From Mytilus edulis (Eukaryota): 64,000 nt of DNA. Below, piece after piece: positions 18,557 through 58,131 of the stretch; within the stretch, counting starts at the first letter, position 1, and every line of letters begins with the position of its first letter. The notes under the pieces were generated by a model. It searched no databases and was not told where the DNA came from. It saw only the letters and a list, made by a program, of their open reading frames with translations. A program made the position numbers and the translations under genes. The stretch spans positions 84,816,001 through 84,880,000 of the forward strand of contig NC_092347.1 in NCBI RefSeq assembly GCF_963676685.1. Direction: 5' to 3'.

Positions 18557-20450
18557 ATGAAACATGAAACATGAAACAAACATGAAAACTTAATTAAACG
18601 CCTATTTCTACATATACAATATGTATTCAATGGCGTTGTACATAAATGACATATAAAATACAAAAATACTAAACAAAAATACAATATGTATGTACAATAC
18701 CAAAAATTGAAAATTTATACTGTGATACACAAGAAAAAAGTCAGAAAAGTTCAAAATAATTTTGGAAATACAATGTTTTCAACCGACATTTAAAAATATC
18801 CAAAGATTCAGAGTTTCTTACATTTGTACCTAGTTCATTCCACAATTTTGGCCCAGTAGTACTAAAGCTTCTATCTGAAAAAGTTTTCTTTTTGTTATAT
18901 GGGACTGCATAACAACCAATAGATGACTCTGACGACCTTAATGAACGTTTCGACACTTGAGGATTTATCAAATTGATCAAATAAGACGGTGCATTACCTA
19001 CATGACAGTTGTACATGTATGTTAAGATTTTAAATGTAATTCTGGCTTTGATCGGAAGCCAGTGTAAGTCAAACAATGCCTGCTTGGCACTGTCATACTT
19101 AGAACGGTTTAACACAAGTTTGGCACACATATTCTGTATACGTTGCAATTTATATAAATCAGTTTGTGAAACTCCAAAAAGTATAACATTGCAATAATCT
19201 AAATGTGAAATAACCAAAGATAAGACCAAAGTTTCAGTTGCTTCTTTCGATAGATAGGATCTTATGCACTTTATTTTGTAGTAGTTCATCATTGCTGTCT
19301 TACATTTTTTAGTAATATGGTCTTTGAAGTTTAGAGTCTCATCCAGAAAAGCTCCTAAGTACCGTATACATGTTTTTGATTTTATAACATCTCCACAAAT
19401 GATTATTTCTTTTGTCTGACATTTAGAGAGTTGTTGTCGACTGCCAAAGAGAATAAACTCTGTTTTCGCATTGTTCATTTTTAGTTTGTTACTGTTCATC
19501 CAGGTGTTTATAAGAACAGCGCAGTCCTGTAAGTCACGAATTGCATCCATCTCATTCGTTAATGTTGGCACGAAACGTTTATTAGCAGTATGGTCGTCGG
19601 CAAATCCGTACACAGTAATAGATGGTGGAATAATGTCGAATAGGGTTCCGGCGTAGACTAAATAAAGCCAGGGACCTAAGCAACTTCCCTGTGGTACGCT
19701 ACACTCAAGTTGTCGCTCTGATGATGTTGTAGAGCTGACATTTACACGACAGCTTCGAGGTCTCAAGTAGGAATCGATCCATTTAAGTGCGGTTCCATTT
19801 ACACCGTACTGATATTCGAGTACATTTATCAAAATACTATGATCTACAGTATCGAATGCTGCACTTAAATCAACGGCGATCATAGCGGTGACTTCTTGAT
19901 GCTCCATCCCATCGAGTATGTCATTAACGAGTCGTAGAAGGGCCGATTCGCACGAATGGAATTGACGATACGCAGATTGGTTTGTAGGAAGGAGATCATG
20001 ATCTTTCACGTGTTCATTCAGTCTATATAGCGCACATTTTTCAATTAATTTAGACAGGAAAGACAAGTTGCTTACTGGTCTATAATTTGAGTAAATTAGT
20101 TCAAGACCAGCCTTTTTCAGCAGAGGCCTGACTACCGCTTGCTTCCATCTTAATGGGAAGACGCCTTGACTAAGAGACAAGTTAACTAACTTTGTGATAA
20201 CAGGCAACAATTCACTAAGGAACGATTTAAGTACTTTCGTAGGCAAAATGTCAAGTTCGCATGATTTACATTGCAATTTATTTATGATGGTCTTAACTTC
20301 GTCTTCTGATAGATTTTTAAAAGATGTAAATAACGGAACGTCTTTGAACAATGGTTTGTAATCTTTCATAAACTTGTCTTCAAAATTACTCTCTGAAACT
20401 GCTCATTAAACTGAAGCCAAAGTTTGTCTACTTCATCTATAAAGTTTGTG
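18557..20450 (-). mobile_element. 5'-truncated L2/CR1-group LINE (5' boundary approximate)
   Basis: RT ORF followed by a 3'UTR ending in a (TTTCATG)n-type microsatellite tail at about 18557-18590. Confidence 0.85.
18741..20369 (-). CDS. Non-LTR retrotransposon reverse transcriptase (L2/CR1 group), 542 aa, endonuclease domain absent
   Basis: Motifs YRPVSNLSFLSKLIEK, QSAYRQFHSCESAL, DLSAAFDTVDH, VPQGSCLGP, FADD, RYLG, LHWLPI. Confidence 0.93.
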   Translation of the reverse strand: MKDYKPLFKDVPLFTSFKNLSEDEVKTIINKLQCKSCELDILPTKVLKSFLSELLPVITKLVNLSLSQGVFPLRWKQAVVRPLLKKAGLELIYSNYRPVSNLSFLSKLIEKCALYRLNEHVKDHDLLPTNQSAYRQFHSCESALLRLVNDILDGMEHQEVTAMIAVDLSAAFDTVDHSILINVLEYQYGVNGTALKWIDSYLRPRSCRVNVSSTTSSERQLECSVPQGSCLGPWLYLVYAGTLFDIIPPSITVYGFADDHTANKRFVPTLTNEMDAIRDLQDCAVLINTWMNSNKLKMNNAKTEFILFGSRQQLSKCQTKEIIICGDVIKSKTCIRYLGAFLDETLNFKDHITKKCKTAMMNYYKIKCIRSYLSKEATETLVLSLVISHLDYCNVILFGVSQTDLYKLQRIQNMCAKLVLNRSKYDSAKQALFDLHWLPIKARITFKILTYMYNCHVGNAPSYLINLINPQVSKRSLRSSESSIGCYAVPYNKKKTFSDRSFSTTGPKLWNELGTNVRNSESLDIFKCRLKTLYFQNYFELF

Positions 20451-20451
20451 A

Positions 20452-23200
20452 TTTTTATACGCCCGGGACGGGACGTATTATGGTATACCGTTGTCCGTCC
20501 GTCCATCTGTCCGTCCGTCCGTCTGTCCGTCCGTCGTCCACACTTCGGACAATAACTCAAAAACACCTACACCAATTTCCATGAAACTTAAGTGAATTGT
20601 TTATATCTATTGACGTAAGCTCCCTTTCGTTTTTTTTTAATTTCAGATTTTAAGTTTTGGATTTATGGGGCTTTATTCATAAAAAAGGGGGGATTTTCAA
20701 CACTTCGGACAATAACTCAAAAAGGCTTTCACCAATGTCCATGAAACTTTGGTGAATTGTTTATATCTATTGATGTAAGCTCCCTTTCGTTTTTTTTTAA
20801 TTTCAGATTTTAAGTTTTGGATTTATGGGGCTTTATTCATAAAAAAGGGGGGATTTTCAACACTTCGGACAATAACTCAAAAAGGCTTTCACCAATGTCC
20901 ATGAAACTTTGGTGAATTGTTTATATCTATTGATGTAAGCTCCCTTTCGTTTTTTTTTAATTTCAGATTTTAAGTTTTGGATTTATGGGGCTTTATTCAT
21001 AAAAAAGGGGGGATTTTCAACACTTCGGACAATAACTCAAAAAGGCTTTCACCAATGTCCATGAAACTTTGGTGAATTGTTTATATCTATTGATGTAAGC
21101 TCCCTTTCGTTTTTTTTTAATTTCAGATTTTAAGTTTTGGATTTATGGGGCTTTATTCATAAAAAAGGGGGGATTTTCAACTTTTTGGACAATAACTCAA
21201 AAAGGCTTTCACCAATGTCCATGAAACTTTGGTGAATTGTTTATATCTATTGATGTAAGCTCCCTTTCGTTTTTTTTTAATTTCAGATTTTAAGTTTTGG
21301 ATTTATGGGGCTTTATTCATAAAAAAGGGGGGATTTTCAACACTTCGGACAATAACTCAAAAAGGCTTTCACCAATGTCCATGAAACTTTGGTGAATTGT
21401 TTATATCTATTGATGTAAGCTCCCTTTCGTTTTTTTTTAATTTCAGATTTTAAGTTTTGGATTTATGGGGCTTTATTCATAAAAAAGGGGGGATTTTCAA
21501 CACTTCGGACAATAACTCAAAAAGGCTTTCACCAATGTCCATGAAACTTTGGTGAATTGTTTATATCTATTGATGTAAGCTCCCTTTCGTTTTTTTTTAA
21601 TTTCAGATTTTAAGTTTTGGATTTATGGGGCTTTATTCATAAAAAAGGGGGGATTTTCAACACTTTGGACAATAACTCAAAAAGGCTTTCACCAATGTCC
21701 ATGAAACTTTGGTGAATTGTTTATATCTATTGATGTAAGCTCCCTTTCGTTTTTTTTTTAATTTCAGATTTTAAGTTTTGGATTTATGGGGCTTTATTCA
21801 TAAAAAAGGGGGGATTTTCAACACTTTGAACAATAACTCAAAAAGGCTTTCACCAATGTCCATGAAACTTTGGTGAATTGTTTATATCTATTGATGTAAG
21901 CTCCCTTTCGTTTTTTTTTAATTTCAGATTTTAAGTTTTGGATTTATGGGGCTTTATTCATAAAAAAGGGGGGATTTTCAACACTTCGGACAATAACTCA
22001 AAAAGGCTTTCACCAATGTCCATGAAACTTTGGTGAATTGTTTATATCTATTGATGTAAGCTCCCTTTCGTTTTTTTTTAATTTCAGATTTTAAGTTTTG
22101 GATTTATGGGGCTTTATTCATAAAAAAGGGGGGATTTTCAACACTTCGGACAATAACTCAAAAAGGCTTTCACCAATGTCCATGAAACTTTGGTGAATTG
22201 TTTATATCTATTGATGTAAGCTCCCTTTCGTTTTTTTTTAATTTCAGATTTTAAGTTTTGGATTTATGGGGCTTTATTCATAAAAAAGGGGGGATTTTCA
22301 ACACTTTGGACAATAACTCAAAAAGGCTTTCACCAATGTCCATGAAACTTTGGTGAATTGTTTATATCTATTGATGTAAGCTCCCTTTCGTTTTTTTTTA
22401 ATTTCAGATTTTAAGTTTTGGATTTATGGGGCTTTATTCATAAAAAAAGGGTGATTTTTAACACTTCGGACAATAACTCAAAAAGGCTTTCACCAATGTC
22501 CATGAAACTTTGGTGAATTGTTTATATTTATTGATGTAAGCTCCCTTTCAATTTTTATAAATTTCAGATTTTAAGTTTTGGATTTATGGGGCTTTATTCA
22601 TAAAAAAAAAGGGTGATTTTTAACACTTCGGACAATAACTCAAAAAGGCTTTCACCAATGTCCATGAAACTTTGGTGAATTGTTTATATCTATTGATGTA
22701 AGCTCCCTTTCAATTTTTATAAATTTCAGATTTTAAGTTTTGGATTTATGGGGCTTTATTCATAAAAAAAGGGTGATTTTTAACACTTCGGACAATAACT
22801 CAAAAAGGCTTTCACCAATGTCCATGAAACTTTGGTGAATTGTTTATATCTATTGATGTAAGCTCCCTTTCAATTTTTATAAATTTCAGATTTTACATTT
22901 CCGTGTTATGAATTTTTATGCTTAAAAAAGGGGGGATTTTTCCAATTTCAGGACAATAACTAACACTTTCACAAAATTTTATGTATGGATGAAAAATTAA
23001 AGACAACAAACTTAGTTAAATTTGAGGTAGCCTTAATAGTGCCAATTTTTTTGTGCATTTTTATTTATTATTTGGGGGGGGGGGGGGGTATTTGACAGGG
23101 CTCACACTATTTCTAGTTGATCATATAAATTCATTTAAAGCATAAAAGACAAGTTAAAAGAGCAACGGGCGTATCATGCGCTAAAGCGCAGCCCTTTATT
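20452..23200 (+). mobile_element. Helentron-associated non-autonomous element (HINE/DINE-1-like) carrying a satellite array
   Basis: T-run start, subterminal IR ATACGCCCG (20457-65)/CGGGCGTAT (23166-74), (GTCC)n microsatellite, central tandem array, 3' hairpin TGCGCT-AA-AGCGCA (23177-90). Confidence 0.88.
20541..22920. repeat. 160-bp satellite, ~15 near-identical copies
   Basis: CACTTCGGACAATAACTCAAAA... recurs every 160-162 bp. Confidence 0.97.
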
Positions 23201-23229: not shown

Positions 23230-24330
23230 AATAAAGGCAACATAAAGCTGTTCACATGTCCTAATTTGATTGAGATTAAACAAATCCCAGTTACAAACTA
23301 AAACCAAGGGAAACACATAACATTCAGCTATAAGAGAAAACAGCAGAAACACTGAGGTGCAACAAAAACAAACTTTAACATACATAGAAACGAAACTGCC
23401 ATATTCCTGACTTGGTACAGGACATTTGAAGAAACAATGGTGGGTTGAATCTGGTTTTATGCCTAGCCAAACCTCCGGCTTACCGGTAAGCCAAGCCTCC
23501 TGCTTACTAGGTCATGTTGAAAATACTGCTAAAATTACTGACAGGAATACAGTCCAAATAAGTTCAGGAACGCTCAGGACAGAGAAATACATAAATAGAT
23601 ATGGATAAAACTTAAGGTCAGACAACAGTTTTTGGCTAATATCTATAATACTAAAATAACGAGGTCTAATTTGTCAGCCATAATGGGGTAAAAACGACAA
23701 ATCAAAGAATTCAACTTTATATATAGCTAATATAGGACAATGGTGTAGATTTAAAATTACACCACTCCAGACCCTTTTGTTTTTCACATAATTAATATTG
23801 CCAATAATTAACAAGTTCCGGGTTGAATATGATACCGATACCATTAGTATATTCACCTGTTACCTATTACCTTATCTGTACGTCCCGCATCTGACAGGCG
23901 CACCATCAAACGGTGTATTTAGGATTTTGCTATATACACAGGTCACAATCACAGGGTTGACACTACTAAATTCAATCATTGTCAAATTGTTTCCTAGTGT
24001 AGTATTTTAATCAGTAAGACTTTCTAAGAGATAACAATACGAATACTAAAAATCTGAACTTAAAATAAGGTGTATAGGTAGTTTGATAGTTTTGCCGTGT
24101 GAAGCATGGGTTCATTTGCCTATTACCATTAAAGACGTGTGATACAACTGATACAAATTTACAATCCACGACAACAAGGATAATTAAGGACATTAAGGTA
24201 AAAAAGAACTCAGTCCGAAATACTGTAAATCCATATGAAAAATCTAAGCTCTTGATGTGCATGACAGCAGTAGTACCACTAGAAGACTGGGATTGGCCTA
24301 TTTTAGTCAATAATCTGCCAGAACTAACAA
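23230..24330 (-). mobile_element. Probable Penelope-like element remnant
   Basis: 23230-23400 resembles 36084-36240, which adjoins a Penelope-like RT fragment; no clean ORF. Confidence 0.4.
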
Positions 24331-28529: not shown

Positions 28530-31070
28530 TCAATCTTCGTCACACCTAGAAAGTGCATCTGCTGCTATATTCTGCTTCCCTGGAATATGTGTAATCGTGT
28601 ACCTAAACTCCTGTAAAAATAAACTCCAGCGAAGTAAACGCTGGTTGCTGGTTTTCATTCTATAAAGCCACTGCAAAGGTGCATGGTCACTGAAAATAGT
28701 AAATTCACTACCTTCTAAATATACCCTCAATGTTTTTACCGCCCATACACATGATACAATAGCATAACATTCCTTTTCGATGACTGCATAGTTACATTCT
28801 GCACCACTCAGCTTCTTACTGATAAAAATAACTGGATGTCTGCCATCTTCAAATCCCTGCTCCAAAACAGCACTGAGACCAAACTGTGAAGCATCTGTCT
28901 GTAAAATAAATAATAAAATAAATATAATGATAATCCACGCAAAATTGAATACTGGAACCTTCTTCTTTACTAGAACCACTGGTGCTGCATAAGGACTGGT
29001 TGAAGGTTCAATAATACCAGGCTTTAACATCTCAACTTCTACCTTGACTTGGTTTCTAACTGCATACGGCAAAGGGTGTGGTTCCTTGAAAACTGGTTCA
29101 TCTGTCTTGTGAAATGGTTCGTCCATAGGAGGTATACTGACAAGTGGAGCTTTAGAAATTCTACCCTTCTGAACCCCTCTTAGACACTCTGGACATGATC
29201 TACAATACTGAGCAATATCAACAAATATTCTAGGCCAATAGAAATGCTGCATAATCCTATACCTGGTCTTAGTAATACCCAAATGACCTGCTAAAGAAAT
29301 ATCATGACCTAAGGTCAAAACTGTGTTCCGAAACTTCTGAGGGACAACAATTTGACTAATTGCCTCCCTTGACTGTGGCCTAAATATCCTGTAAAGAATA
29401 TCAGATCTTATTGTAAAATAAGACTGTTCATCCGAGTCATCTGTAATATAAGATCTAAGAGTATCTAAAGTATGATCAGACTTCTGTGCATCAATCAGCT
29501 CCTGTCTAGTACAAATCTGAAAATTAGAGTCAAAATTAGTAATTTGAAAAGGCTCTGTTAAAGGTAAATCATCACTATACTTCTCTGTGTTCTTCTCAAT
29601 TCTTATCTCCTCGTCCGACTGTTTAATCTTCTGTGATCTAGTCTTCACTGCTTGACATGGCTTTGAGGATGGATCTAAAACTGGATCTAAAACTGAAAAA
29701 TCTACAGAATCATCACCAACTACAACAGTGTCCTTAACACTAGTAGGTATATAAGTGTTAACATAGTTCCCTATGATGAGCTCTGCGAAAGGAGTATCCA
29801 AAACTAGAGCTAAAACAGTACCTGAAACAAAAGGAGTGTTAATATTAATCCAAACTTCCTTGCATACACGTGAAGAACCATCTGCAAGACAAATACCTCT
29901 ACTCTTACCTGTAAACTTATCTGAGTCAACATATTTTTGGTTTACAAAAACAGTTGAACATCCTGTGTCCCTTAACACTGAAACTGGTTTACTGTTTACC
30001 TTACCTTCAACTATATCTAATCCTGGTACTTCGTTTGTCTTCACCTCGTCACATGACACCCCTGGTAACCGAATTGTCATGCCACCTGCGTATTCGTCAA
30101 CTGTACTACATGGTTCTGTTTGTCCTGGCTTAACAAAACATAATCCTATTTTACCTTGTTGTCTATTCCTTAAAATACAATCTGAAGCAATATGTCCTTT
30201 GCGGTTACACACAAAGCATGTTCTGGTTTCAGGTTTATACTGACCTTGATTGTTCCCGTTCGATTTACTCTGCTGTTTCTTCTGATAATCACTGCTAGAC
30301 TGTGCTTTATCATTACCCTTACCTACATCTTTGTGTGCTGTTTGATAAGCTTCGGCTAGTTCTACTAAAGACCTAAGATCCGGTGGTTTATGCTCCTGAA
30401 TCCACAACCTTAAATCCTTATCACTACTTACTGTCAACTGATCCCTGACCATCAAATCATAGAGCTTATCAAAACTACCATCAATGTCTTCTCTGGCACA
30501 CCAGTGCCTTAAAAAACCCTCTATCCGTACAGAAAATTCCTTGAAAGACTCCCCAGCAAACTGAGCCGAATTCCTGAACTTAGCCCGATATGCCTCAGAA
30601 GTTAACTCATACCGAACCAAAATAGCTGTCTTAATCTTGTCGTATAACCTACTATCCTCATCACTCAACCTGGAATATGCCTCAAGAGCTTTACCACAAA
30701 GAAGGGGAATAAGTCGTAGTGGCCATTCACTCTTTTGAACTTTATGAAGTGTAACAAGTTTTTCAAAAGCTTTTAAAAATACATCTGGATCTTGACCTTC
30801 AGAAAATTTAGGTAACTTAGTCTTAATAGACTCTGACGTTTTAAAACTACTTTTACCTCCTGTTGCCAACTCTTTCTCTCTCAACTCCAGCTCTCTCAGT
30901 CTATAACTATTGTCCATCTCTGCTTTTCTCATATCTCGTTCAGCTGCTCTCTCATCTCTTTCTGCAGCTTGCATCTCTCTATACAAATTTAAACAAGTAG
31001 ATGCCGTTTCACCTTTATCAATCAAGTCTGCCATCCACTGTGGCAACTTTTCTGACGTCATGTTGTACAC
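28530..31070 (-). CDS. Gag-Pol remnant, 846 aa: SCAN-like capsid, CCHC knuckle, aspartic protease, integrase Zn-binding domain, RT N-terminal stub, RNase H; integrase core and RT core deleted
   Basis: YRAKFRN..GESFKEF, CFVCNRKGHIASDC, LRDTGCS, H...GHLG...FYWP...CRSCPEC, GIIEPSTSPYAAPVVLVKK, FILQTDAS...DHAPL...ADALSR; no YxDD and no DDE core. Confidence 0.92.
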   Translation of the reverse strand: MYNMTSEKLPQWMADLIDKGETASTCLNLYREMQAAERDERAAERDMRKAEMDNSYRLRELELREKELATGGKSSFKTSESIKTKLPKFSEGQDPDVFLKAFEKLVTLHKVQKSEWPLRLIPLLCGKALEAYSRLSDEDSRLYDKIKTAILVRYELTSEAYRAKFRNSAQFAGESFKEFSVRIEGFLRHWCAREDIDGSFDKLYDLMVRDQLTVSSDKDLRLWIQEHKPPDLRSLVELAEAYQTAHKDVGKGNDKAQSSSDYQKKQQSKSNGNNQGQYKPETRTCFVCNRKGHIASDCILRNRQQGKIGLCFVKPGQTEPCSTVDEYAGGMTIRLPGVSCDEVKTNEVPGLDIVEGKVNSKPVSVLRDTGCSTVFVNQKYVDSDKFTGKSRGICLADGSSRVCKEVWININTPFVSGTVLALVLDTPFAELIIGNYVNTYIPTSVKDTVVVGDDSVDFSVLDPVLDPSSKPCQAVKTRSQKIKQSDEEIRIEKNTEKYSDDLPLTEPFQITNFDSNFQICTRQELIDAQKSDHTLDTLRSYITDDSDEQSYFTIRSDILYRIFRPQSREAISQIVVPQKFRNTVLTLGHDISLAGHLGITKTRYRIMQHFYWPRIFVDIAQYCRSCPECLRGVQKGRISKAPLVSIPPMDEPFHKTDEPVFKEPHPLPYAVRNQVKVEVEMLKPGIIEPSTSPYAAPVVLVKKKVPVFNFAWIIIIFILLFILQTDASQFGLSAVLEQGFEDGRHPVIFISKKLSGAECNYAVIEKECYAIVSCVWAVKTLRVYLEGSEFTIFSDHAPLQWLYRMKTSNQRLLRWSLFLQEFRYTITHIPGKQNIAADALSRCDED

Positions 31071-31208
31071 AATCTAATCTGATAATGATACAAAAAATAT
31101 ACAAATATTTCGGAGTAAGGTTACCAGAAATAAAATCTCAAAAATAAATCAACAGTGTCTGGTTATACCTTCATAACAAATGAACTCTATGAATGTTGGA
31201 CCTGTGAC

Positions 31209-32415: not shown

Positions 32416-35400
32416 GACTCCATCCCGAGTGCTATCGTTAATAACCAGATTACTTGTGTACGATAGGAATACAGGAAACAGATTTATGCCGCTGTGAAAT
32501 GTAAAATTACTCATCTTATTTTATTGATGCATCTCCAATATGACAATAATTAAGTTTTATATCATATAAGAATTAGTTACAAGTACATTACATTTTTGTT
32601 CATTTTCCTAAGTTCAATACAAAATGATTGAAATGTACAATCATATGAAAATTTGATTTAAAAACATTTTGATTACGATAATTTAGTCGATTTAAAAACA
32701 ATTCGTTTGATGTTATCTATACTATTTGAACACTGAAATTACTATTTTTTTGTACATCAACAATTACCAAAAAAATTACAGAAAATCATAAATAATGTGT
32801 GCTAGAGTTTACCTATGACAAGTCAAACACTGCTTATGATATTACACTAACTTAGATTTTGAGATGAAACTTAATGTAATTCAGCTTTAAACGGTTGAAA
32901 TTTCACTATGATTATAGGGACAAGGTTTAAATTTTATTGCACAGTTTAATTAAATCAACATACATTTAGAAAAAAAAGAAAAGAGTTTTTATATCAGTCT
33001 TTTGGTTAGAATTACATGTATGGTATTGAATATGTAAGGATTTCGTAATACCTTTTGTATATTTAATGGATCAGTTTTATGTACATAGTTGGTAAACTTT
33101 GCTATTTATAATTTGAAACGATTGTTTGAAGGTAACATTTCATAATTCGATGAAATTAAAAAAGCCTTACTTAAAATAATGTTTTGCTCAAATGAAGCTT
33201 TTTAACTTATTTTCCCATCATGAAACCAATGTTTGTAATTTTTTTGTACCCTTTTAAGATAAGAAGATGTGGTATAATTGACAATTATACATCTTTCCAC
33301 CAGAGTCTAAATGAGCAATTATAGGTCACATTAAGGCCTAGAACATTTGAGATATCTCATTCTGTTCATTTCAAGTTAAAGAGTAGTTTTTCATTGTTAA
33401 TTTTAAAAAGTAACCTTGAAATATGCTTTAATTAAATTAATAATACCAAGCAGTAAAGTGTAGTCACTATTGACAGATCACAGCAAGGTAGAAGTACAAT
33501 TCCAAAACACCTAGGTATAACAAGAAATGAATAGAAATTATGAAAATAGGACGGACCACTCTCTACGGCATGTATGGAGAAAAAAAAAATAAAAAAAAAA
33601 AACTCTAAGGGAAATTCAAAACGTTAAGTGTCAATTAAAAAAAAGAAATGGAACCAAATGGAAAACTAAAGGCCATTACAGGGCCTACACAGTCAGGTAG
33701 CTAACACAGCAGTCTACACTTTAATTGGGACAGCACCAATCCGTTTGACAATAGACCAAAATACGCTATCTTTTTGAATGACCATGATAAGAACCAACTT
33801 ATCGTTAGACTTCCAAATCCCATAGCGTCAACTTGCAACTGAGAATACTAGTCCAACAAACAGACATTGAAATACCCCCAAATACAAGAAAAACCATCCT
33901 TTGTGTCTCATAAAGTCTGGCAATGAACAGGAAACAAGCCAATTAATTTGAAACCAGGAGAAAATAAGTAGCAAACTATTAACAAAAACATATTGCCTAC
34001 ACATAGTTAAGTCTAGACACAATAAGAATATATCTTCAAAAAGATACATTTTATAATACAGCAGATGAAGATTTAGATTTTTTCACGCAGAAGACCTAAG
34101 CATAAACGTGAAAGTTACCCCCAGAAAAAAAATCATACCTGGAAAACTTAAAGAATGGGCTCTATCATAATGTGGTTGACTGTGACATGCTGACATGCTT
34201 ATACAATTTGTGATGAACTGTATTCACAAAAGTATAATTCAAAACTATTGACTCCATATAAAGCAACAACACTACGTAGAGTTAGAAAACTTTACACGGC
34301 TGTTCTGCTAACATGCATGCATACCAACAGGTTGAAACAGATGGGGTTAAATTGTGTGAATCCATTGCCATCAGGAAAGTCTACGGCATGGGTTGGATTT
34401 TTCTGCATGTTCTGTTCTTTAGCGTTCGGTTTTGTTTGACCATGGACATATCATACAATTTTAACGCATTATTTTCTTCGATCTGACCAATTCCATTCTG
34501 TAAGGCTGAAGACATCACCCCACGAGTAAGCCTAGATTACTTATGAAGCACTATTGACAGATTTTTTATGATAACAGAATGACCATACGCGCAGAGGTTA
34601 TTTGCTCCTGTCCAAATTATTTCAAAGTTTGTTTTCAGTTATGGTACCTCAAAGCTTATAAACTTTTTTGTAGCTATCAGGAGTCCATCCTGCGTTTCAT
34701 TGTTTTTTTTTTAACAAGAGTATCGATGATCCTTGTGTGTGATAGATGTTACATGCTGGTGGAAATATTTTGTCATTGATGATACATTTGTACTAACGGG
34801 GTTTCTGGACTGAAGTTAACATTAAGGATCATTTATGCTATAGATGGTTGAAGTATTTCAGTTTACTTTTATTTCTTGTTTATTTTGCAGTTTTTATATT
34901 TTTTATTATTAAGCTGTACTGATGTCAAGTAAACATTCTGGTTGTGAGTTAACACTGTTATATGTTAGAATAGCTGCTCAACCATAGCATAGTGGATTGT
35001 GGATTAAAATCCCATTACACCGAGATGTTTCTCTCATAAGATTTTGCTTTGTATGGCTTAGCAGTTGATATGATACCTTGTCACAAATATGTCATATATT
35101 ACCGTTGTCGTCCTATGTTAAACATTGGTCACATGTTATTCAGTGGTATCGTGCTATTATCGCGTTTTGGTCCTGAGTTTGGATTTACATTATTCGGATT
35201 TATAAATCTATAAACTTATTTTTAAGCACCTTGATATTGTTCAGCAATTTTTATCGGAATCTTGTATTTTTTTAGTATAGTGTTTATATGTAGTTTCATT
35301 GTTTTGGTGTTATAGTCTAATGATCTGTAAGATAACAGGTTCGGGCCGTTCCTAACCATGATGAAAAGTCTTTTGATTGCTTCAGTAATTTCTTCGATCC

Positions 35401-36083
35401 ATCGATCGAAGTCGCCAATGCATACGCCCGAGATATACCAGGATTCTAGAAATAACAACTCACTGTCTTGATAGGCGTTACCCAATGGTAAATTGTTGTT
35501 TCTTTTGTAAAGTGTTTACAGTCTCATTGTTTTGGTGTTGAAGTCTAATGAGCTGTCCTTCTGTCATGGTAAGATAACAGGTTCGGTCCGTTCCTGATAA
35601 AAGGTAAAACATGATGATGTAAAGTCTTTTGACTGCTTTAGTAATTCATCGATCGATCAAAGTCTACCAATTCATACGCTATGACTCAGAGATGCATCAG
35701 GATTCTAGTAAGGACTGTCTTGAACGGTGTTACCCAACAATAAACCGATTGCTATCAGATAAAAGTATTGGGGTTTTAAATTTAAAGCCGCGTGGTATTC
35801 GGGATAGTTCAGCAATGCATTTCTCTAATTTTTAGCTCGTTGTAAAACAGTATAGTCAGTTTAAAAAATTTCTTCAAATCTGAAATGACATAACAATGTA
35901 CCTTTGATAACTATGTACACCACTAGGTCGATGCCACTGCTGGTGGACGTTTCGTCCCCGAGGGTATCACCAGCCCAGTAGTCAGCACTTCGGTGTTGAC
36001 ATGAATATCAATTATGTGGTCATTTTTATAAATTTCCTGTTTACCAAACTTTGAATTTTTCGAAAAACTTAAGATTTTCTTAT

Positions 36084-36802
36084 AAATAACGGCAACAGAG
36101 GTATACCGATGTTCAAAACTCATAAATCGATAGAAAAAAAGCAAATCCGGATCACAAACCAAAACCGAGGGAAACGCATTAAATATAAGAAGAGAATGAC
36201 GACACAACATTAAAATGTAACACACACAGAAACGAACTAAGTATAAGACAAAATTCGATGAGAATTCTGAATCAAACTGCTTACGTAATACATCGTACAA
36301 ATAACGTTGAACCAAATCACATCTAATAAATGAAGGCGGTGATTAATTTTCTTTACCATAACACATGAATATAACCGAAAAGACGTCAAGACATTTGTCG
36401 AAATCCGATGAGAATTACAAATATAACATCAAAACTAAATACATGAATTTGGGACAGAAAAGTACCGTAACACGTCTTATAGCAATGCGAATTCACACCC
36501 AGCAAAACATTCACGTTCGGTAATTCAAAGATTAGACGACGTAATGACAAACCACAATATAACATGCGGTGAAAATGTCCTTAGCTAGTTTGGACAAAGA
36601 CACATCGTATGGATCAATCGATTCGTGATGGTGTCCGTAAAGTTTACGGAGTGTCAATTTTAATCTGTCCTCCTCATAACTTTGTTGGAGCAGTTTCTGC
36701 GTAGGGAGCACACTCCTGTATATGAAGTCCGTATGACTGAATTTGACAAGCACGAAAATAACGTATCAATTGAGATATGTAAACACCATACGAAGGGGTA
36801 GA
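36084..36802 (-). mobile_element. Penelope-like retroelement 3' fragment inserted in the retrozyme
   Basis: Minus strand encodes PSYGVYISQLIRYFRAC / DF...TQKLLQQSYEEDRLKLTLRKLYGHHH (PLE RT C-terminal region), frameshifted. Confidence 0.75.
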
Positions 36803-36909
36803 GGGCATAGATTACCTTAGCCGTATTTGGCACAACTTTTTTTGAATTTTGGATCCTCAATAGCTCTACGACTTCGTACTTGTTTGGCTTTAAAACTATT
36901 TTGATATGA

Positions 36910-36953
36910 GCGTCATTGATGAGTCTTATGTAGACGAAAAGCGCGTCGGGCGT
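36910..36953 (+). ncRNA. Type I hammerhead ribozyme, copy 1 (core variants C3U and stem III C>A)
   Basis: GCGTCA TTGATGA GTC TTATGTA GAC GAAA A GCGC GTC GGGCGT. Confidence 0.8.
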
Positions 36954-37264
36954 ACTAAATTATAATCCTGGTACCTTTGATAACTATTTACACCACTGGA
37001 TCGATGCCACTGCTGGTGGACGTTTCGTCCCCGAGGGTATCACCAGCCCAGTAGTCAGCGCTTCGATGTTGACATGAATATCAATTATATGGTCATTTTT
37101 ATAATTTTCCTGTTTACAAAACTTTGAATTTTTCGAAAAACTAAGGATTTTCTTATCCAAGGCATATATTACCTTAGCCGAATTTGGCACAACTTTTGGG
37201 GATTTTGGATCCTCGATGCTCTACAACTTCGTACTTGTTTGGCTTTACATCTATTTTGATATAA

Positions 37265-37308
37265 GCGTCGCTGGTGAGTCTTATGTAGACGAAACGCGCG
37301 TCTGGCGT
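37265..37308 (+). ncRNA. Type I hammerhead ribozyme, copy 2 (core variant A6G)
   Basis: GCGTCG CTGGTGA GTC TTATGTA GAC GAAA C GCGC GTC TGGCGT; palindromic minimal stem III ACGCGCGT. Confidence 0.82.
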
Positions 37309-38034
37309 ACTAAATTATAATCCTGGCACCTTTGATAACAGTCACGATCCGTTACCAGAGCTTTCACGATCGTCTCTCAATACTTGACCGTCGTTAGATA
37401 TTCTTTCACGATCATTTCTCTCGTTAAAATGAATGACACCCGTGAAGAAGTTATTCACTGTTTATGGGGAAATAATAAAATCAATTCGCATCAAATCGAA
37501 TATGTCCAGTTAGGGACAATTGTTTGAAAAAATGTGAAAATATCATTTCTAACGATAAAAAGCTTAAATATTGAAATTTTATTATTCAAACTATAAAGTT
37601 CTTGATTTTCCGATTAGAAGTTTTAACAGGTGATAACCGTATAAATCTCCAGGGCTTTTATTATTCAACACAGACTGTTTCACCTGAAAAGAAAATATCG
37701 ACTTGTACCATCAATAATTAATAGATAAACAAGGTCTACCCGTAAATTGCTAACGTGAACTGTACTCTTTTGAAATCAGTATCATATTATAGTGCCTGTT
37801 TTTACCCTCAGTTTGTGAAAGACGCACAAAACGGAGAGTTAAACTGTGTTTAAATTTCTAAAATCTTTGATCCGAAACAAAGTTATATGATAAAGACATG
37901 ATTATGTAGAGGTACATACCAAAACAACGATTTGTTTATAGTGTGTGTGGATTAAAAGGCTCTCAGCTTCTAGTGACTAAATACTACCATTCAAAAACTT
38001 AGGAGAAACAACCTCCTTGTACAGTGGACTAATA

Positions 38035-52100: not shown

Positions 52101-53214
52101 ATAAATGAAAAATAAATAAATAAATAAAACAAATAAATAAATTTCTAAAAACATAGAATTAATAAATAAACTACAATGAACTCTTTTCATTTACATATAA
52201 TTTTATAGCATGTTTTGGTCAGTGATTCTCTAATATCAATTATTAAAATCTTGAATGTGTTACCAGACTGCCTTAATTTCACTTAAACATGGTAAATTGA
52301 AAATATTTCCTTGTTATATTGATCAGATAGTCATATCTTGACATGGAATTTACAAAAGGAGTGTATAAAATGGGATTTTACAGTTTGTAAAGATTTACGT
52401 CGTTTTATTTTTTAGAGGGCAACAGTGTACTTGTATTACTCTTGTCAGATACATATCACAAAAGTTCATTGACTGTGATACATAAAAATCATGTAATAAA
52501 TATTGGCCTTTAAAATGCGTTAAGAAGTCAAGATTGAAAGAAAATGAATAATACTGTGTAACTCAGTTGGAATTTCATTGAACTTCTTAAAAATAAAGAG
52601 ACATTGGTGTTTGTAGTCCTTTATATGTATTTTGTATTCATTGATAAAAGTTGTAGTTAAAACATAATTTTTTAAAAACTGTTTTGATTTCCTGTTTCAA
52701 AGGGGGCTGTATTATAGTGATTTATAATAAGTCATCATGTTTGTCTGTCTATATATATTATAGATCCCTGCATTCCGTTAATCTTTTTTATTTGTTAGTA
52801 TTTAAACCAACGTAGTAGAATTGAACCTTATCATTGTGCTTAAGGACAAAAGCTGTGTACATTGTAACTTAATATGTTTTTAATGTCAGTTTCATGACTA
52901 TATATTTCAAAACTATGAAATCAATATTATGAAAATAATAAGGGATAAAGGTTTGGCCCATATCATTAGTGTTACCACAAATTACGCATTAAATTGAGGA
53001 AATGAAGTTCTTCCTTAAAAATACTTTTACTACGTAATCACAAAGATTTTTTGGTTTTCATTTGTGGAATGTTTGATTACAGAACTTTTCCTTTTTAAAA
53101 ATCAATTATCTATACAATATCCTTTTAGTAGAAACAATTTCATATTGACCACTTAAAACATTTTTTGTCACACCTGGTCAAAATAGGTAGAAGCAAGACT
53201 TGTCAGTTTATGAT

Positions 53215-53857
53215 GTCAACCCATTAACAGTTGTTAAAGGTTGTGATAAGGTAGTGAGACATGCCTCTGTGTTAACACATTAACAGTTGTTAAAGGTTGT
53301 GATAAGGTAGTGAGACATATCTCTGTGTCAACACATTAACAGTTGTTAAAGATTAATTTTGTTATAAGGTAGTGAGACATGCCTCTGTGTTAACACATTA
53401 ACAGTTGTTAAAGGTTGTAGTAAGGTAGTGAGACATGCCTCTGTGTCAACACATTAACAGTTGTAAAAGATTAATTTTGTTATAAGGTAGTGAGACATGC
53501 CTCTGTGTTAACACATTAACAGTTGTTAAAGGTTGTAGTAAGGTAGTAAGACATGCCTCTGTGTCAACACATTAACAGTTGTTAAAGGTTGTGATAAGTT
53601 AGTGAGACATGCCTCTGTGTTAACAGATTAACAGTTGTTAAAGGTTGTGATAAGGTAGTGAGACATGCCTCTGTGTTAACACATTAACTGTTGTTAAAGA
53701 TTAATTTTGTTATAAGGTAGTGAGACATGCCTCTGTGTTAACACATTAACAGTTGTTAAAGGTTGTAGTAAGGTAGTGAGACATGCCTCTGTGTTTACAC
53801 ATTAACAGTTGTTAAAGGTTGTAGTAAGGTAGTGAGACATGCCTCTGTGTTAACAGT
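53215..53857. repeat. 56/62-bp minisatellite, ~11 copies
   Basis: CATTAACAGTTGTTAAAGGTTGTGATAAGGTAGTGAGACATGCCTCTGTGTTAACA with a 6-bp longer variant interspersed. Confidence 0.95.
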
Positions 53858-55457
53858 TTTTGATTCAGCCATGCTGGAGATGGTACAGATTTCTAAATTG
53901 AAGACATATCATGAAACTAAATATGTATTTATACTAATTGGCTATTTGCAGACACTTCATACACAATTTGATCATTTACTGTCCACTTTTGATATGCTTT
54001 TTTGCTAATTTGGTTAGACCTTTCTGTCAACAGAATATTTGGCAAAGCCTTTTCTGTAAACAGGATATTTGGTCAGGCCTTTTCTGTAAATTTGATATTT
54101 GGTCAGGCCTTTTCTGTAAATTTGATATTTGGTCAGGCCTTTTCTGTAAATAGGATATTTGGTCAGGCCTTTTCTGTAAAAAGGATATTTGGTCAGACCT
54201 TTTCTGAAAACAGGATATTTGGTAAGGCCATTTCTGTGAACAGGATATTTGGTCATGCTTTTTATGAACAGGATATTTTGTCTGTTTGGTCTTCTCACTC
54301 TATGAACAGGATATATATTTTAAAATTAAGAATGAAAATGGGGAATGTGTCAAAGAGACAACAACCTGACCATAGAACAAAAAAGGATATTTGGTCAGCC
54401 TTTTAGTGTTGCCTTTTCTGTAAACGGGATATTTGGTCATGCTTTTTATGAACAGGATATTTTGTCTGTTTGGTCTTCTCACTCTATGAACAGGATATTT
54501 TGTCTGTTTGGTCCTCTCTCTCTCTCTCTCTCTCTGTGGACAGGATATTTTGTCTGTTTGGTCTTGTCTCTCTGTGAACAGGATATTTCTCTGTTTGGTC
54601 TTCTTTCTCTGTGAACAAGATATTTTGTCTGTTTGGTCTTCTCTCTCCGTGAACAGGATATTTTGTCCGTTTGGTCTTCTCACTCTATGAACAGGATATT
54701 TTGTCTGTTTGGTCCTCTCTCTCTGTGAATAGGATATTTTGGCTGTTTGGTCTTCTCTCTCCGTGAACAGAATATTTTGTCTGTTTGGTCTTCTCTCTCT
54801 CTGTGAACAGGATATTTTGTCTGTTTGGTCTTCTCTCTCTGTGAACAGGATATTTTAAAATTGAGAATGAAAATGGGGAATGTGTCAAAGAGACAACAAC
54901 CTGACCATAGAACAAAAAAGGATATTTGGTCAGCCTTTTAGTGTTGCCTTTTCTGTAAACAGGATATTTGGTCATGCTTTTTATGAACAGGATATTTTGT
55001 CTGTTTGGTCTTCTCACTCTATGAACAAGATATTTTAAAATTGAGAATGAAAATGGGGAATGTGTCAAAGAGACAACAACCTGACCATAGAACAAAAAAG
55101 GATATTTGGTCAGCCTTTTAGTGTTGCCTTTTCTGTAAACGGGATATTTGGTCATGCTTTTTATGAACAGGATATTTTGTCTGTTTGGTTCTCTCTCTGT
55201 GAACAGGATATTTTGTCTCTGGTTTTCTCTCTCTGTGAACAGGATATTTTGTCTCTGGTTTTCTCTCTCTGTGAACAGGATATTTTGTTTGTTTGATCTT
55301 CTTTCTGTGAACAGGCTATTTTGTCTCTGGTTTTCTCTCTCTGTGAACAGGATATTTTGTCTGTTTGGTTTTCTCTCTCTGTGAATAGGATATTTTGTCT
55401 GTTTGGTTCTCTCTCTGTGAACAGGATATTTTGTCTCTGGTTTTCTCTCTCTGTGAA

Positions 55458-56534
55458 CAGTGTTCTAGGATTCCCATTACCCGTTACCCGGGGTAAGTGG
55501 ATTAGGACAACGGGTAAGTCATTTTTTAGCCTTTGTCACCCGGTGGTAAGTCAATTTTCAAGTTCGGGGAAGCCGAAAAACTCTTGAAATTTCCCGATCC
55601 TCTTCAATTTTCCCATATCTGCTTTTTATTTTTATTAAATCACGAGAAAAAACTTTGAAAAAAAGATCGAACATTTTGTCGATGTCTATCGGCGCTTTTA
55701 TTCAAGCACTCGTTTACTAGGTGTAATCAAGCGCAAAAGAGACCACATTCTTCTCCTATCATTCTAAAAGTCGGTCACGGTGTCGGTAAAATCGGAAAAT
55801 CCGGATTGATAACTGGTGGTTAAATCGGGACATAAACGATTTTTTTTCTTGTCATCGGAGGAAAATAAACTTACAGTTGCATTTATTATAGCTCTTAATA
55901 AATGACATAGTAATAACTATAACATATTTGTCAAATTTAGTAAGAAATCGTTTTTTTTAAATTTTGTACAAAATTCAATCGTATCCGAATCCAGCTTTGT
56001 TCAGACAAACTTCACAACATATAATTTAAAGCATGTCATAAAAGTTTTTAAATTTAAAATCTTATCCTTAATCATTAATGTTCAGTGAATCAGCCTGAAA
56101 AATATTCAGTATTTTATAAAGAGCATGTCTGATTTTTAAAAAGAGTTGCATGTAAGTCCCTTATTTTTTTTACAGTGGATTATTGGTATGAAAGTCAGTG
56201 AAGTACTGTTATAGTTCAATGTACTTTTCTGGTGGTATAGGTATATAGTTACAATTAAGCCGTTACAATTAAGCCATATATTTCAAATACTTTTCAATAC
56301 ACTTTAGTCATCATTGCTTCATACAAAACATCATTTGACATCACAAAAAAGGGTACTTTCTGAAGCATGAAAAAGGTGCCAGGAAATGGCTAGAATGCAG
56401 GATTTTGCATCATTTACCCCAGACCCCCGGCGTCCGCATTGGTTGGCGGATTTAACTTTTAGATGTGGGTAAGTAATTTTTTTATTGATCTTACCCGTGG
56501 TAAGTCAAGGTGCCAAAAAAATCCTAGAACACTG
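55458..56534. mobile_element. hAT-like MITE inserted in the satellite
   Basis: TIR CAGTGTTCTAGGAT/ATCCTAGAACACTG; flanking duplication TGTGAA (6 bp); GGTAAG subterminal motifs. Confidence 0.85.
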
Positions 56535-57806
56535 TGTGAACAGGATATTTTGTTTGTTTGATCTTCTTTCTGTGAACAGGATATTTTGTCTCTGGTTTTC
56601 TCTCTCTGTGAACAGGATATTTTGTCTGTTTGGTCTTCTCTCTTTCTGTGAACAGGATATTTTGTTTGTTTGATCTTCTTTCTGTGAACAGGATATTTTG
56701 TCTGTTTGGTCTTCTCTCTCTGTGAACAGGATATTTTGTCTGTTTGGTCTTCTCTCTCTGTGAACAGGATATTTGTCTGTTTGATCTTCTTTCTGTGAAC
56801 AGGATATTTTGTCTGTTTGGTATTCTTTCTGTGAACAGGATATTTTGTCTGTTTGGTCTTCTCTCTCTGTGAACAGGATATTTTGTCTGGTCTTCTCTCT
56901 CTGTGAACAGGATATTTTGTCTGTTTGATCTTCTTTCTGTGAACAGGATATTTTGTCTGGTCTTCTCTCTCTGTGAACAGGATATTTGTCTGTTTGGTCT
57001 TCTCTCTCTGTGAACAGGATATATTTTAAAATTGAGAATGAAAATGGGGAATGTGTCAAAGAGACAACAACCTGACCATAGAACAAAAAAGGATACTTGG
57101 TCAGCCTTTTAGTGTTGCCTTTTCTGTAAACAGGATATTTGGTCATGCTTTTTAAGAACAGGATATTTTGTCTGTTTGGTCTTCTCACTCTATGAACAGG
57201 ATATTTTAAAATTGAGAATGAAAATGGGGAATGTGTCAAAGAGACAACAACCTGACCATAGAACAAAAAAGGATATTTGGTCAGCCTTTTAGTGTTGCCT
57301 TTTCTGTAAAAGGGATATTTGGTCATGCTTTTTATGAACAGGATATTTTGTCTGTTTGGTCTTCTCACTCTATGAAGAGGATATTTTGTCTGTTTGGTCC
57401 TCTCTCTCTCTGTGTGGACAGGATATTTTGTCTGTTCGGTCTTGTCTCTCTGTGAACAGGATATTTCTCTGTTTGGTCTTCTTTCTCTGTGAACAAGATA
57501 TTTTGTCTGTTTGGTCTTCTCTCTCCGTGAACAGGATATTTTGTCCGTTTGGTCTTCTCACTCTATGAACAGGATATTTTGTCTGTTTGGTCCTCTCTCT
57601 CTGTGAATAGGATATTTTGGCTGTTTGGTCTTCTCTCTCCGTGAACAGGATATTTTGTCTGTTTGGTCTTCTCTCTCTCTGTGAACAGGATGTTTTGTCT
57701 GTTTGGTCTTCTCTCTCTGTGAATAGAATATTTTGTCTGTTTGGTTCTCTCTCTCTGTGAACAGGAAATTTTGTCTGTTTGGTGTTGTCTCTTTATGAAT
57801 AGGATA

Positions 57807-58131
57807 TTTTTATGCCCCACCTACAATAGTAGAGGGGCATTACGTTTTCTGGTCTGTATGTCTGTTCGTCTGTCCATCCGTCTGTCTGTCTGTTCATTCG
57901 TCCATGCATCCGTTCGTCCCACTTCAGGTTAAAGTTTTTGGTCAAGGTAGTTTTTGGTGAAGTTGAAGTCCAATCAACTTGAAACGTAGTACACATGTTC
58001 CTTATGATATTATCTTACTAATTGTAATGCAAAAATAAGAGTTTTGACCCCAATTTCACAGTCCACTGAACATAGAAAATGATAGTGTGAGTGGGGCATC
58101 TGTGTAAGTAACTGGGGACAAATTCTTGTTT
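57807..58131 (+). mobile_element. Short HINE inserted in the satellite
   Basis: TTTTTATGCCCCAC...GTGGGGCAT subterminal IR, (GTCY)n tract, inserted in a T-run. Confidence 0.75.

Follow-up and report, generated by a model that had tools for sequence, protein, structure and literature searches.

An array of hammerhead-bearing repeats at positions 35898–37339 of a 64,000-nucleotide (nt) stretch of Mytilus edulis DNA (NC_092347.1, 84,816,001–84,880,000, forward strand; the window, in which all positions below are counted) raises two questions: whether this locus releases a 355-nt circularisable RNA, as the first-pass annotation had predicted, and which enzyme copied it into the chromosome. Judged by its sequence, the element is a mussel retrozyme without long terminal repeats (non-LTR), of a known and published family, and the locus is an ordinary one, a decayed copy among thousands. 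The reading we favour, and hold to be likely, is that a two-monomer copy has decayed and been split by a later insertion of a Naiad, a Penelope-like element (PLE) whose GIY-YIG domain precedes its reverse transcriptase (RT), and that the retrozyme family is copied by a Naiad RT that binds a hairpin shared by the two elements and starts just upstream of it. The retrozyme is thus proposed as a non-autonomous Naiad partner, the hairpin and the rule for 3′ ends being common to both.

The window array and its family

We count registers from the first base after the GUC cleavage site, use N1–N3 for Naiad families and A and B for retrozyme subfamilies (labels coined in this analysis), and number hammerhead positions (C3, A6, C15.2 etc.) in the usual way. 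The array, which begins at register 24 and ends at register 37, agrees with the definition of a retrozyme as tandem 150–450-bp repeats with one type I hammerhead per unit. Its parts are as follows:

35898–36083, plus strand: 5′ part of retrozyme monomer 1, registers 24–209; 179/186 identical to the family majority and 176/186 to monomer 2
36084–36808, minus strand: 3′ end of an N1 Naiad, 5′-truncated and internally deleted, ~720 bp; tblastn 82–86% to the N1 protein
36804–36970, plus strand: 3′ part of monomer 1; 156/167 identical to the family majority, with a 5-base overlap with the Naiad fragment
36910–36953, plus strand: hammerhead 1, site after 36947; C3U, C15.2A and U1.1G, two helix pairs broken in the fold, predicted dead
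36971–37325, plus strand: retrozyme monomer 2, 355 nt, uninterrupted
37265–37308, plus strand: hammerhead 2, site after 37302; helices intact, A6G in the core and an A2.1G wobble, predicted weak or dead
37326–37339, plus strand: start of a third monomer, 14 bases, ending 37 nt after GUC, at the low limit of the range in which the family's 3′ ends are fixed

The array had been described as two non-coding monomers. This holds for the uninterrupted monomer 2, but monomer 1 measures 1,073 bp because the ~720-bp antisense Naiad fragment is inserted in it. The fragment, part of which codes for RT, is the only coding trace in the array, and the retrozyme monomer itself codes for no protein and has no LTR. 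Since the retrozyme register passes from 209 to 214 across the fragment, the insertion is later and nested and removed 4 target bases; short shared bases stand at both joints. Read along the Naiad, the fragment comprises the last ~81 codons of the RT open reading frame (ORF), frameshifted (36808–36565), then the 3′ untranslated region (UTR) to 36265 and, after a jump of about 990 nt, the terminal 183 nt, with 89% identity to the N1 majority over two blocks. A dispersed family of 1,073-nt chimeras was considered and rejected: other N1 copies stop matching at 36808 with no retrozyme continuation, and the insertion is private to this locus. The fragment has about 6,600 first-look candidates genome-wide, of which 40 were scored. 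Monomers 1 and 2 agree at 339/365 positions in their aligned parts. Compared with the majority sequence of the 48 other distinct monomers, the GUC-to-GUC unit (36948–37302) is 93.8% identical; no other of the 49 scores as low (median 97.5%). Tandem Repeats Finder does not list the window array.

Both type I hammerheads, the GUC sites with their spacing of 355 nt, and the core substitutions read from the sequence earlier (C3U at 36916 in core 1, A6G at 37274 in core 2) are confirmed, as is the surmise that the array is probably decayed, both cores being mutated. The palindromic stem III ascribed to both monomers is present in core 2, but in core 1 C15.2A (36940) breaks stem III together with its palindrome, and U1.1G (36948) breaks stem I. 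A2.1G in hammerhead 2 is a tolerated change. In an Rfam search, a check proposed at the first pass, core 2 matches Hammerhead_1 (RF00163) with 24.6 bits (E 0.016), under the cut-off of 34, and core 1 gives no match; at other loci, 26 of the 34 matches listed lie above the cut-off. To call the ribozymes minimal and dependent on dimers was an overstatement, since stem III has 2 bp and a GCGC tetraloop, which falls outside the helix III-less definition of ‘minimal’, and a cloned genomic mussel repeat self-cleaves at ~0.1/min during transcription (PMC7229834); dimers are nonetheless allowed by an 8-bp palindrome. A candidate second hammerhead on the minus strand (35940–35975) was rejected, being a core look-alike that is the reverse of the hairpin described below and whose GAAAC is not conserved in subfamily B or in Naiads. 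Four arrays had hinted that A6G is enriched in terminal monomers, an idea likewise dropped (19/30 terminal, against 20/30 for intact cores; p 1.0).

Nor are the hammerheads a chance match: the intact 32-nt core has 8,118 exact copies in the 1.37-Gb assembly (reversed control 0), and arrays elsewhere reach 9 monomers (locus L021). The window copy belongs to the 355-nt subfamily A, which is 85% identical to B. The first-pass statement that mussels hold a class of about this size is borne out by the published 375-nt retrozyme of M. galloprovincialis (PMC4918200, Additional file 11). From 119 loci chosen for holding a hammerhead, we kept 101 distinct insertions whose two ends both fall within the locus. 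Their 3′ ends lie 36–50 nt after GUC in 84/101, and their 5′ ends are spread over registers 1–346. Target-primed copying that begins at a fixed point, as in non-LTR elements, leaves just such a fixed 3′ end with scattered 5′ ends. Because copies start past the cleavage site and cross it, the template was ligated or uncut, a conclusion conditional on loci picked for a hammerhead; a head-to-tail template is in keeping with a 3′ end fixed past that site. It had also been remarked that the array starts and ends in the same register. Indeed, CCTTTGATAAC recurs at 35901, 36974 and 37329, but the coincidence is not special and mostly reflects the family-wide fixed 3′ end; the shared register of the array ends is half family rule and half chance.

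Target-site duplications of such retrozymes, where they occur, are described as exceeding 4 bp; no general duplication was found among the 101 insertions (at least 6 nt in 13, compared with 6.7% of mismatched flank pairs). At the window array, the 6-nt candidate ATAACA was rejected, such matches occurring in 6.7% of controls, and the empty site is not reconstructable, given a left flank of unique sequence and a right flank formed by the end of a different repeat. The latter, at 37342–37445 and abutting the array, is the terminal ~105 bp of a dispersed repeat (729 first-look candidates) whose copies share at least 1.5 kb upstream, often in inverted pairs; as its body is missing here, a deletion probably joined it to the array end. 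Just left of the array, 35292–35744 is a degenerate direct repeat with a period of about 230–260 bp.

A hairpin shared with Naiad elements

Directly after the fixed 3′ end, at registers 48–105 (segment about 40–107), each retrozyme monomer carries a bulged stem-loop. The same hairpin opens the N1, N2 and N3 Naiads, where it lies between the pseudo-LTR end and the ATG. Its two copies in the window are:

35922–35979, plus strand: Naiad-type bulged hairpin, copy 1; match of model R1 at 35914–35983, 88.6 bits (training-set member)
36995–37052, plus strand: Naiad-type bulged hairpin, copy 2; match of model R1 at 36987–37056, 91.4 bits (training-set member), with covariation with Naiad starts

The Naiad families in this genome include intact coding copies. 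Full N1 copies carry a 1,007-aa ORF with GIY-YIG before RT, and the open ORFs are 97–99.8% identical to that of locus L070, in which PF01541 covers residues 10–98, RVT_1 is weak (E 0.047, residues 583–728) and the CxC motif between endonuclease and RT reads CSC at about residue 308. The ORFs of N2 (1,000 aa) and N3 (1,053 aa) have the same domain order. N3 (e.g., L248) matches the start of the printed Naiad_Mgal in DNA and protein (PMC8557442), and N1 and N3 proteins share 57–59% amino-acid identity. N1 is placed as a Naiad by domain order, motif and pairwise identity (59% to the Naiad_Mgal-like protein). In L276–L279 an N1 3′-end fragment stands directly before the hairpin and ORF, as a pseudo-LTR-like partial tandem.

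Canonical PLEs, with RT before GIY-YIG, are present as well, in at least five families with long open ORFs (L207, L211/L221/L222, L213–L216/L224, L225, L226); they have hammerhead cores of their own (CUGAUGA, CUGACGA, CUGAAGA), and several copies lie in inverted pairs. Outside the core, their hammerheads have no sequence in common with the retrozyme. None of 19 canonical loci shares the retrozyme's end, and model R1 finds nothing at these loci except two matches inside retrozyme-like copies in L225.

The hairpin is found at the Naiad start in 25/30 N3 loci and, by motif, in 15/20 further loci, with a 16th added by the model. The end rule is also common to both elements: of 38 distinct N1 3′ ends, 33 stop no more than 5 nt from the terminal motif and short of the hairpin, the other 5 continue into the hairpin as tandem junctions, and N2 and N3 follow the same pattern. 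An alignment of 9 rows from 4 lineages (retrozyme A, retrozyme B, N1 and N2; N3 omitted on account of its inserted arm) has 96% of cells paired, compared with 34–48% in slid controls, and 5/22 pairs are changed on both sides; RNAalifold recovers the same rod. Model R1 also matches N3 starts outside its building set (8 matches, 23–28 bits). Among 96 retrozyme copies at 55 loci, the hairpin diverges by 2.7% versus 5.2% for the monomer middle (p 0.001), and the retrozyme hairpin is nearer to N2 (54–56 identical columns) than to N1 (45–50). In a word search of the published Naiad supplement (PMC8557442), the motif opens 13 consensuses (Naiad_CGi, Sglo, Olur, Tgra, Pmar, Mcor, Mgal, Bpla, Mphi, 1_Skow, 1_Pfla, 2_Pfla and Cmel), and a variant occurs in three from Acropora (Amil, Aacu and Anas).

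Further features were noted around the hairpin. At N3 starts (L294:1584–1674 and others) an extra arm of ~21 nt sits at the same bulge, and a similar arm insertion in the printed Naiad-1_Skow and Naiad_Mphi consensuses (PMC8557442) suggests a tolerant junction. In both monomers the Naiad-type hairpin is followed by a further small one with a UUCG loop (35980–36000 and 37053–37073), which at 5.3% divergence is no better conserved than the monomer middle at 5.2%. By eye, the 3′ ends of retrozymes A and B and of N1–N3 carry an RGTA word ~21–25 nt before the end and a T-rich finish, often TTTA, possibly part of the start signal.

In mussels, hammerheads cut multimers to monomers, RtcB ligates these in vitro, and circles accumulate in tissue (PMC7229834). 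We propose that the Naiad enzyme would bind the shared hairpin, prime at a DNA break made by its own GIY-YIG domain, and copy away from the hairpin from a start 0–7 nt upstream of it. On a circle, the RT would run round and produce arrays whose 3′ end is fixed and whose 5′ end is random, while the same start rule on circular or end-joined Naiad RNA would yield the pseudo-LTR. The window locus would presumably be one such event, of two turns or more, followed by decay.

The retrozyme family is expressed. Reads of four RNA runs, possibly from another species and with strandedness assumed, were placed on an intact monomer (L009:1680–2033), giving 5,800, 6,571, 9,905 and 3,272 reads from 8.7, 8.3, 7.3 and 12.7 million records; head-to-tail joints number in the hundreds. 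In three runs the reads are biased to the strand that hammerhead-sense RNA would give in a standard stranded library, and here 68–74% of the presumed-sense depth carries through the fixed end, compared with 35–43% on the other strand; the figure is 26–27% in the fourth, random-primed run. Among genomic cores, 10/30 continue into a next monomer. These depths fit abundant head-to-tail RNA, in which short reads cannot separate circles from uncut multimers. At 98% likeness to the window locus, 125/125, 131/132 and 51/51 reads lie only partly on it (1/308 wholly; the animals may lack the insertion). With both cores mutated and 307/308 reads only partly on the locus, release of a 355-nt RNA from here is not supported, and the locus is probably silent as a source of circles.

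Other explanations of the hairpin and of the copying are possible, and we rate them well below the Naiad reading. It appears unlikely that the hairpin reflects shared descent only, or a role in transcription, stability or translation, while the retrozyme is copied by a canonical hammerhead-bearing PLE (Neptune/Poseidon type) or a long interspersed nuclear element (LINE). Young canonical PLEs, in several families that have long open ORFs and hammerheads of their own, do occur, Xenopus retrozymes match PLE pseudo-LTRs in a study that reports Naiads only in a coral (10.64898/2026.07.22.740005), and in Naiads the hairpin adjoins the ATG; however, the 19 canonical loci lack the hairpin and any retrozyme homology outside retrozyme copies, the retrozyme hairpin is conserved although no ORF follows it, and a promoter or translation role leaves unexplained why insertions of both elements end beside the hairpin. 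Less probable again is a processing signal (self-cleaving RNA or nuclease site) cutting tandem transcripts on the 5′ side, such that the fixed 3′ end would be the end of a linear RNA. The hairpin does sit exactly at the unit boundary, and there is precedent for ribozyme processing of 5′ ends among other retrotransposons (PMC7761336), but Rfam gives no match in L276 at E up to 5, RNA reads run across the boundary unhindered and their ends do not accumulate there, and efficient cutting would open circles and preclude arrays such as the nine-monomer L021. That the window locus nevertheless releases the 355-nt RNA, via a dimeric hammerhead or trans help from intact family transcripts, is very improbable: nothing interrupts the unit bounded by the two GUC sites, hammerhead 2 keeps all its helices and could pair with a second copy of itself in an 8-bp intermolecular stem III (−14.7 kcal/mol), and some hammerhead core variants retain modest activity (PMC3088659), but hammerhead 1 has three breaks, a mixed hammerhead 1/2 duplex has only 6 bp and loses the A15.1–U16.1 pair, C3 pairs with G8, a natural variant changed at A6 cleaves at <0.1/min (a figure not for A6G; PMC3088659), and the read counts above speak against it.

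Several points weigh against the reading of copying by Naiads and of a dead copy in the window. The number of pairs changed on both sides is not above that in shuffles (124/500), and the 9–10 most conserved central pairs of the hairpin never vary; as the shuffle control is not beaten and the rows are related, few independent changes support covariation. The 16 published consensuses are a count of motif carriers only, obtained by word search. The comparison is confined to PLEs, its canonical sample amounting to ~8 families drawn from 150 scored of 858 GIY-YIG candidates, so that a closer canonical partner could be missed. Monomers diverge by 1.7% within arrays and 4.5% between them, which speaks for the reading, but the similarity within arrays is equally compatible with later DNA-level duplication. 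In the RNA runs, whose limits as to species, strand and circles versus multimers also count here, read ends show no pile-up at GUC. Finally, the A6G core occurs in 260 genomic copies (reversed control 0), and its loss of activity is a prediction.

The N1 relic and the direction of transfer

The 3′ UTR of N1 carries, in sense, a homologue of retrozyme registers about 105–355 plus 1–41 (~290 nt), with 74% identity of its majority to subfamily A and 71% to B. In 15 N1 copies the relic starts at 103–110 in 14 and ends at 40–41 in 12. Hairpin and relic together thus cover the whole retrozyme monomer with Naiad sequence. A recognisable hammerhead is present, but broken, in all 34 N1 copies (of 39) that cover the site, none having an intact core; 2–8 of 12 core bases are changed, and differently per sub-lineage. 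Parsimony assigns the core 3.08 steps per site, as against 1.50 for the stems, 1.30 for the remaining relic sequence and 1.24 for UTR outside it, a rate of change about 2.4-fold that of the sequence around the core; the excess persists without CpG sites, and only 4/1,369 slid patterns reach the core's total. This suggests that N1 has been selected against self-cleavage about 550 nt before the Naiad end, a possible reason for the reported lack of hammerheads in Naiads, with a local mutation or editing hot spot as the alternative. No relic was found in N2 3′ UTRs.

Between descent of the retrozyme from the N1 UTR and its capture by that UTR we see near-even odds, and the trees do not decide. In them the N1 relics group as a single clade (100/100), which midpoint rooting of the unrooted data places as sister to the whole set of retrozymes, and monophyly of subfamily A is not rejected (p-AU 0.21); 11 of 27 relic rows were used, 2 poor rows being left out. 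Capture of a retrozyme explains why the 3′ edge of the relic lies at the fixed end, whereas descent via an internal deletion explains why the 5′ edge lies at the hairpin, a position at which only about 4/101 insertions have their 5′ end. Descent by internal deletion needs a later extension of the UTR. Tentatively, and with more doubt than belief, we offer the fuller version of descent: the retrozyme would be an internally deleted Naiad, made of the 5′ RT-binding hairpin and the last ~290 nt of an ancestral 3′ UTR with a working hammerhead 41 nt from the end, Naiads would copy circular RNA from a fixed start, and N1 would have lengthened its UTR and destroyed the ribozyme. If true, a fixed start on circular RNA beside the 5′ hairpin explains pseudo-LTRs, and destruction of the ribozyme in N1 explains the apparent absence of hammerheads from Naiads.

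One intact N3 copy holds in its 3′ UTR a 27-nt retrozyme 3′ tail in sense (L208:1590–1618, minus strand). We considered it as a shared end and rejected it as a one-off insertion, absent from the homologous stretch of L056 and from an internal duplicate. It follows that retrozyme copies land in Naiad UTRs and can be very short.

Elsewhere in the window, 23394–23926 holds fragments of other repeats, of which 23399–23475 matches the N1 3′ UTR. Two minus-strand ORFs of 847 aa (28533–31073) and 553 aa (18744–20402) are by eye gag-like and LINE RT-like. A young 160-bp tandem array occupies 20540–22961 (15 copies, 97% matches), and 53214–59419 is a long region of 30–56-bp minisatellites.

Comparison with known systems

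The element itself is in print. Mussel retrozymes were described as 350–390-bp repeats in thousands of copies, with circles detected by northern blot and a 353-nt construct tested (Cervera and de la Peña 2020, PMC7229834). The printed 375-nt sequence, which by eye has the same core, tail and hairpin as the window family (Cervera et al. 2016, PMC4918200, Additional file 11), is the longer subfamily B, whereas the window copy is of the 355-nt subfamily, 85% identical to B and broken. Type I hammerheads that can cleave as dimers via a palindromic stem III, a possibility in mussel too, are known as the minimal hammerheads of PLE pseudo-LTRs (PMC7761336). There, however, ‘minimal’ denotes the lack of helix III, whereas stem III of the mussel ribozyme consists of 2 bp capped by a tetraloop; most invertebrate hammerheads, according to the same review, form a stable helix III (PMC7761336).

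Two questions stay open in the papers covered: the identity of the enzyme that mobilises animal retrozymes, and the way in which Penelope-like RTs select a template and begin to copy it. In the accessible text of PMC7229834 and PMC4918200, PLEs are named only as likely helpers, and no signal, fixed end or Naiad link is given. The shared hairpin, as a 60-nt candidate signal, together with a predicted start site and three helper families with intact ORFs, makes both questions testable at the bench. If true, a hairpin that steers a telomerase-related RT to a chosen RNA circle would also be a tool.

The Naiads of Craig et al. 2021 (PMC8557442) resemble N1–N3 in having GIY-YIG before RT, 5′-truncated copies and partial tandems. 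They were described as lacking canonical hammerheads, whereas N1 has a full but broken one in its 3′ UTR; the two Mytilus consensuses there carry no HHR_core comment, and the main text, so far as covered, contains neither ‘hairpin’ nor ‘stem-loop’. Our literature search found no report of a Naiad 5′ hairpin or of a Naiad–retrozyme link, within a coverage largely outside subscription papers and with the supplements of PMC7229834 and 10.64898/2026.07.22.740005 possibly bearing on it.

A close precedent is the preprint of Li, Clavereau and Pollet 2026 (10.64898/2026.07.22.740005), in which retrozymes are homologous to terminal non-coding parts of PLEs, as here. In Xenopus, 24/57 retrozyme families match 22 Repbase elements, 21 of them PLEs. 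By intact cores in consecutive units, its sign of an active retrozyme, other mussel arrays are active, whereas the window array is not. Molluscs are absent from that study, non-vertebrate retrozymes were untested by its authors, and it gives no RNA signal, proposing local tandem expansion. What is new is the Naiad link, as a variant of the retrozyme–PLE pairing: the mussel partner is of a clade thought to be hammerhead-free, and the homology includes the 5′ start of the element.

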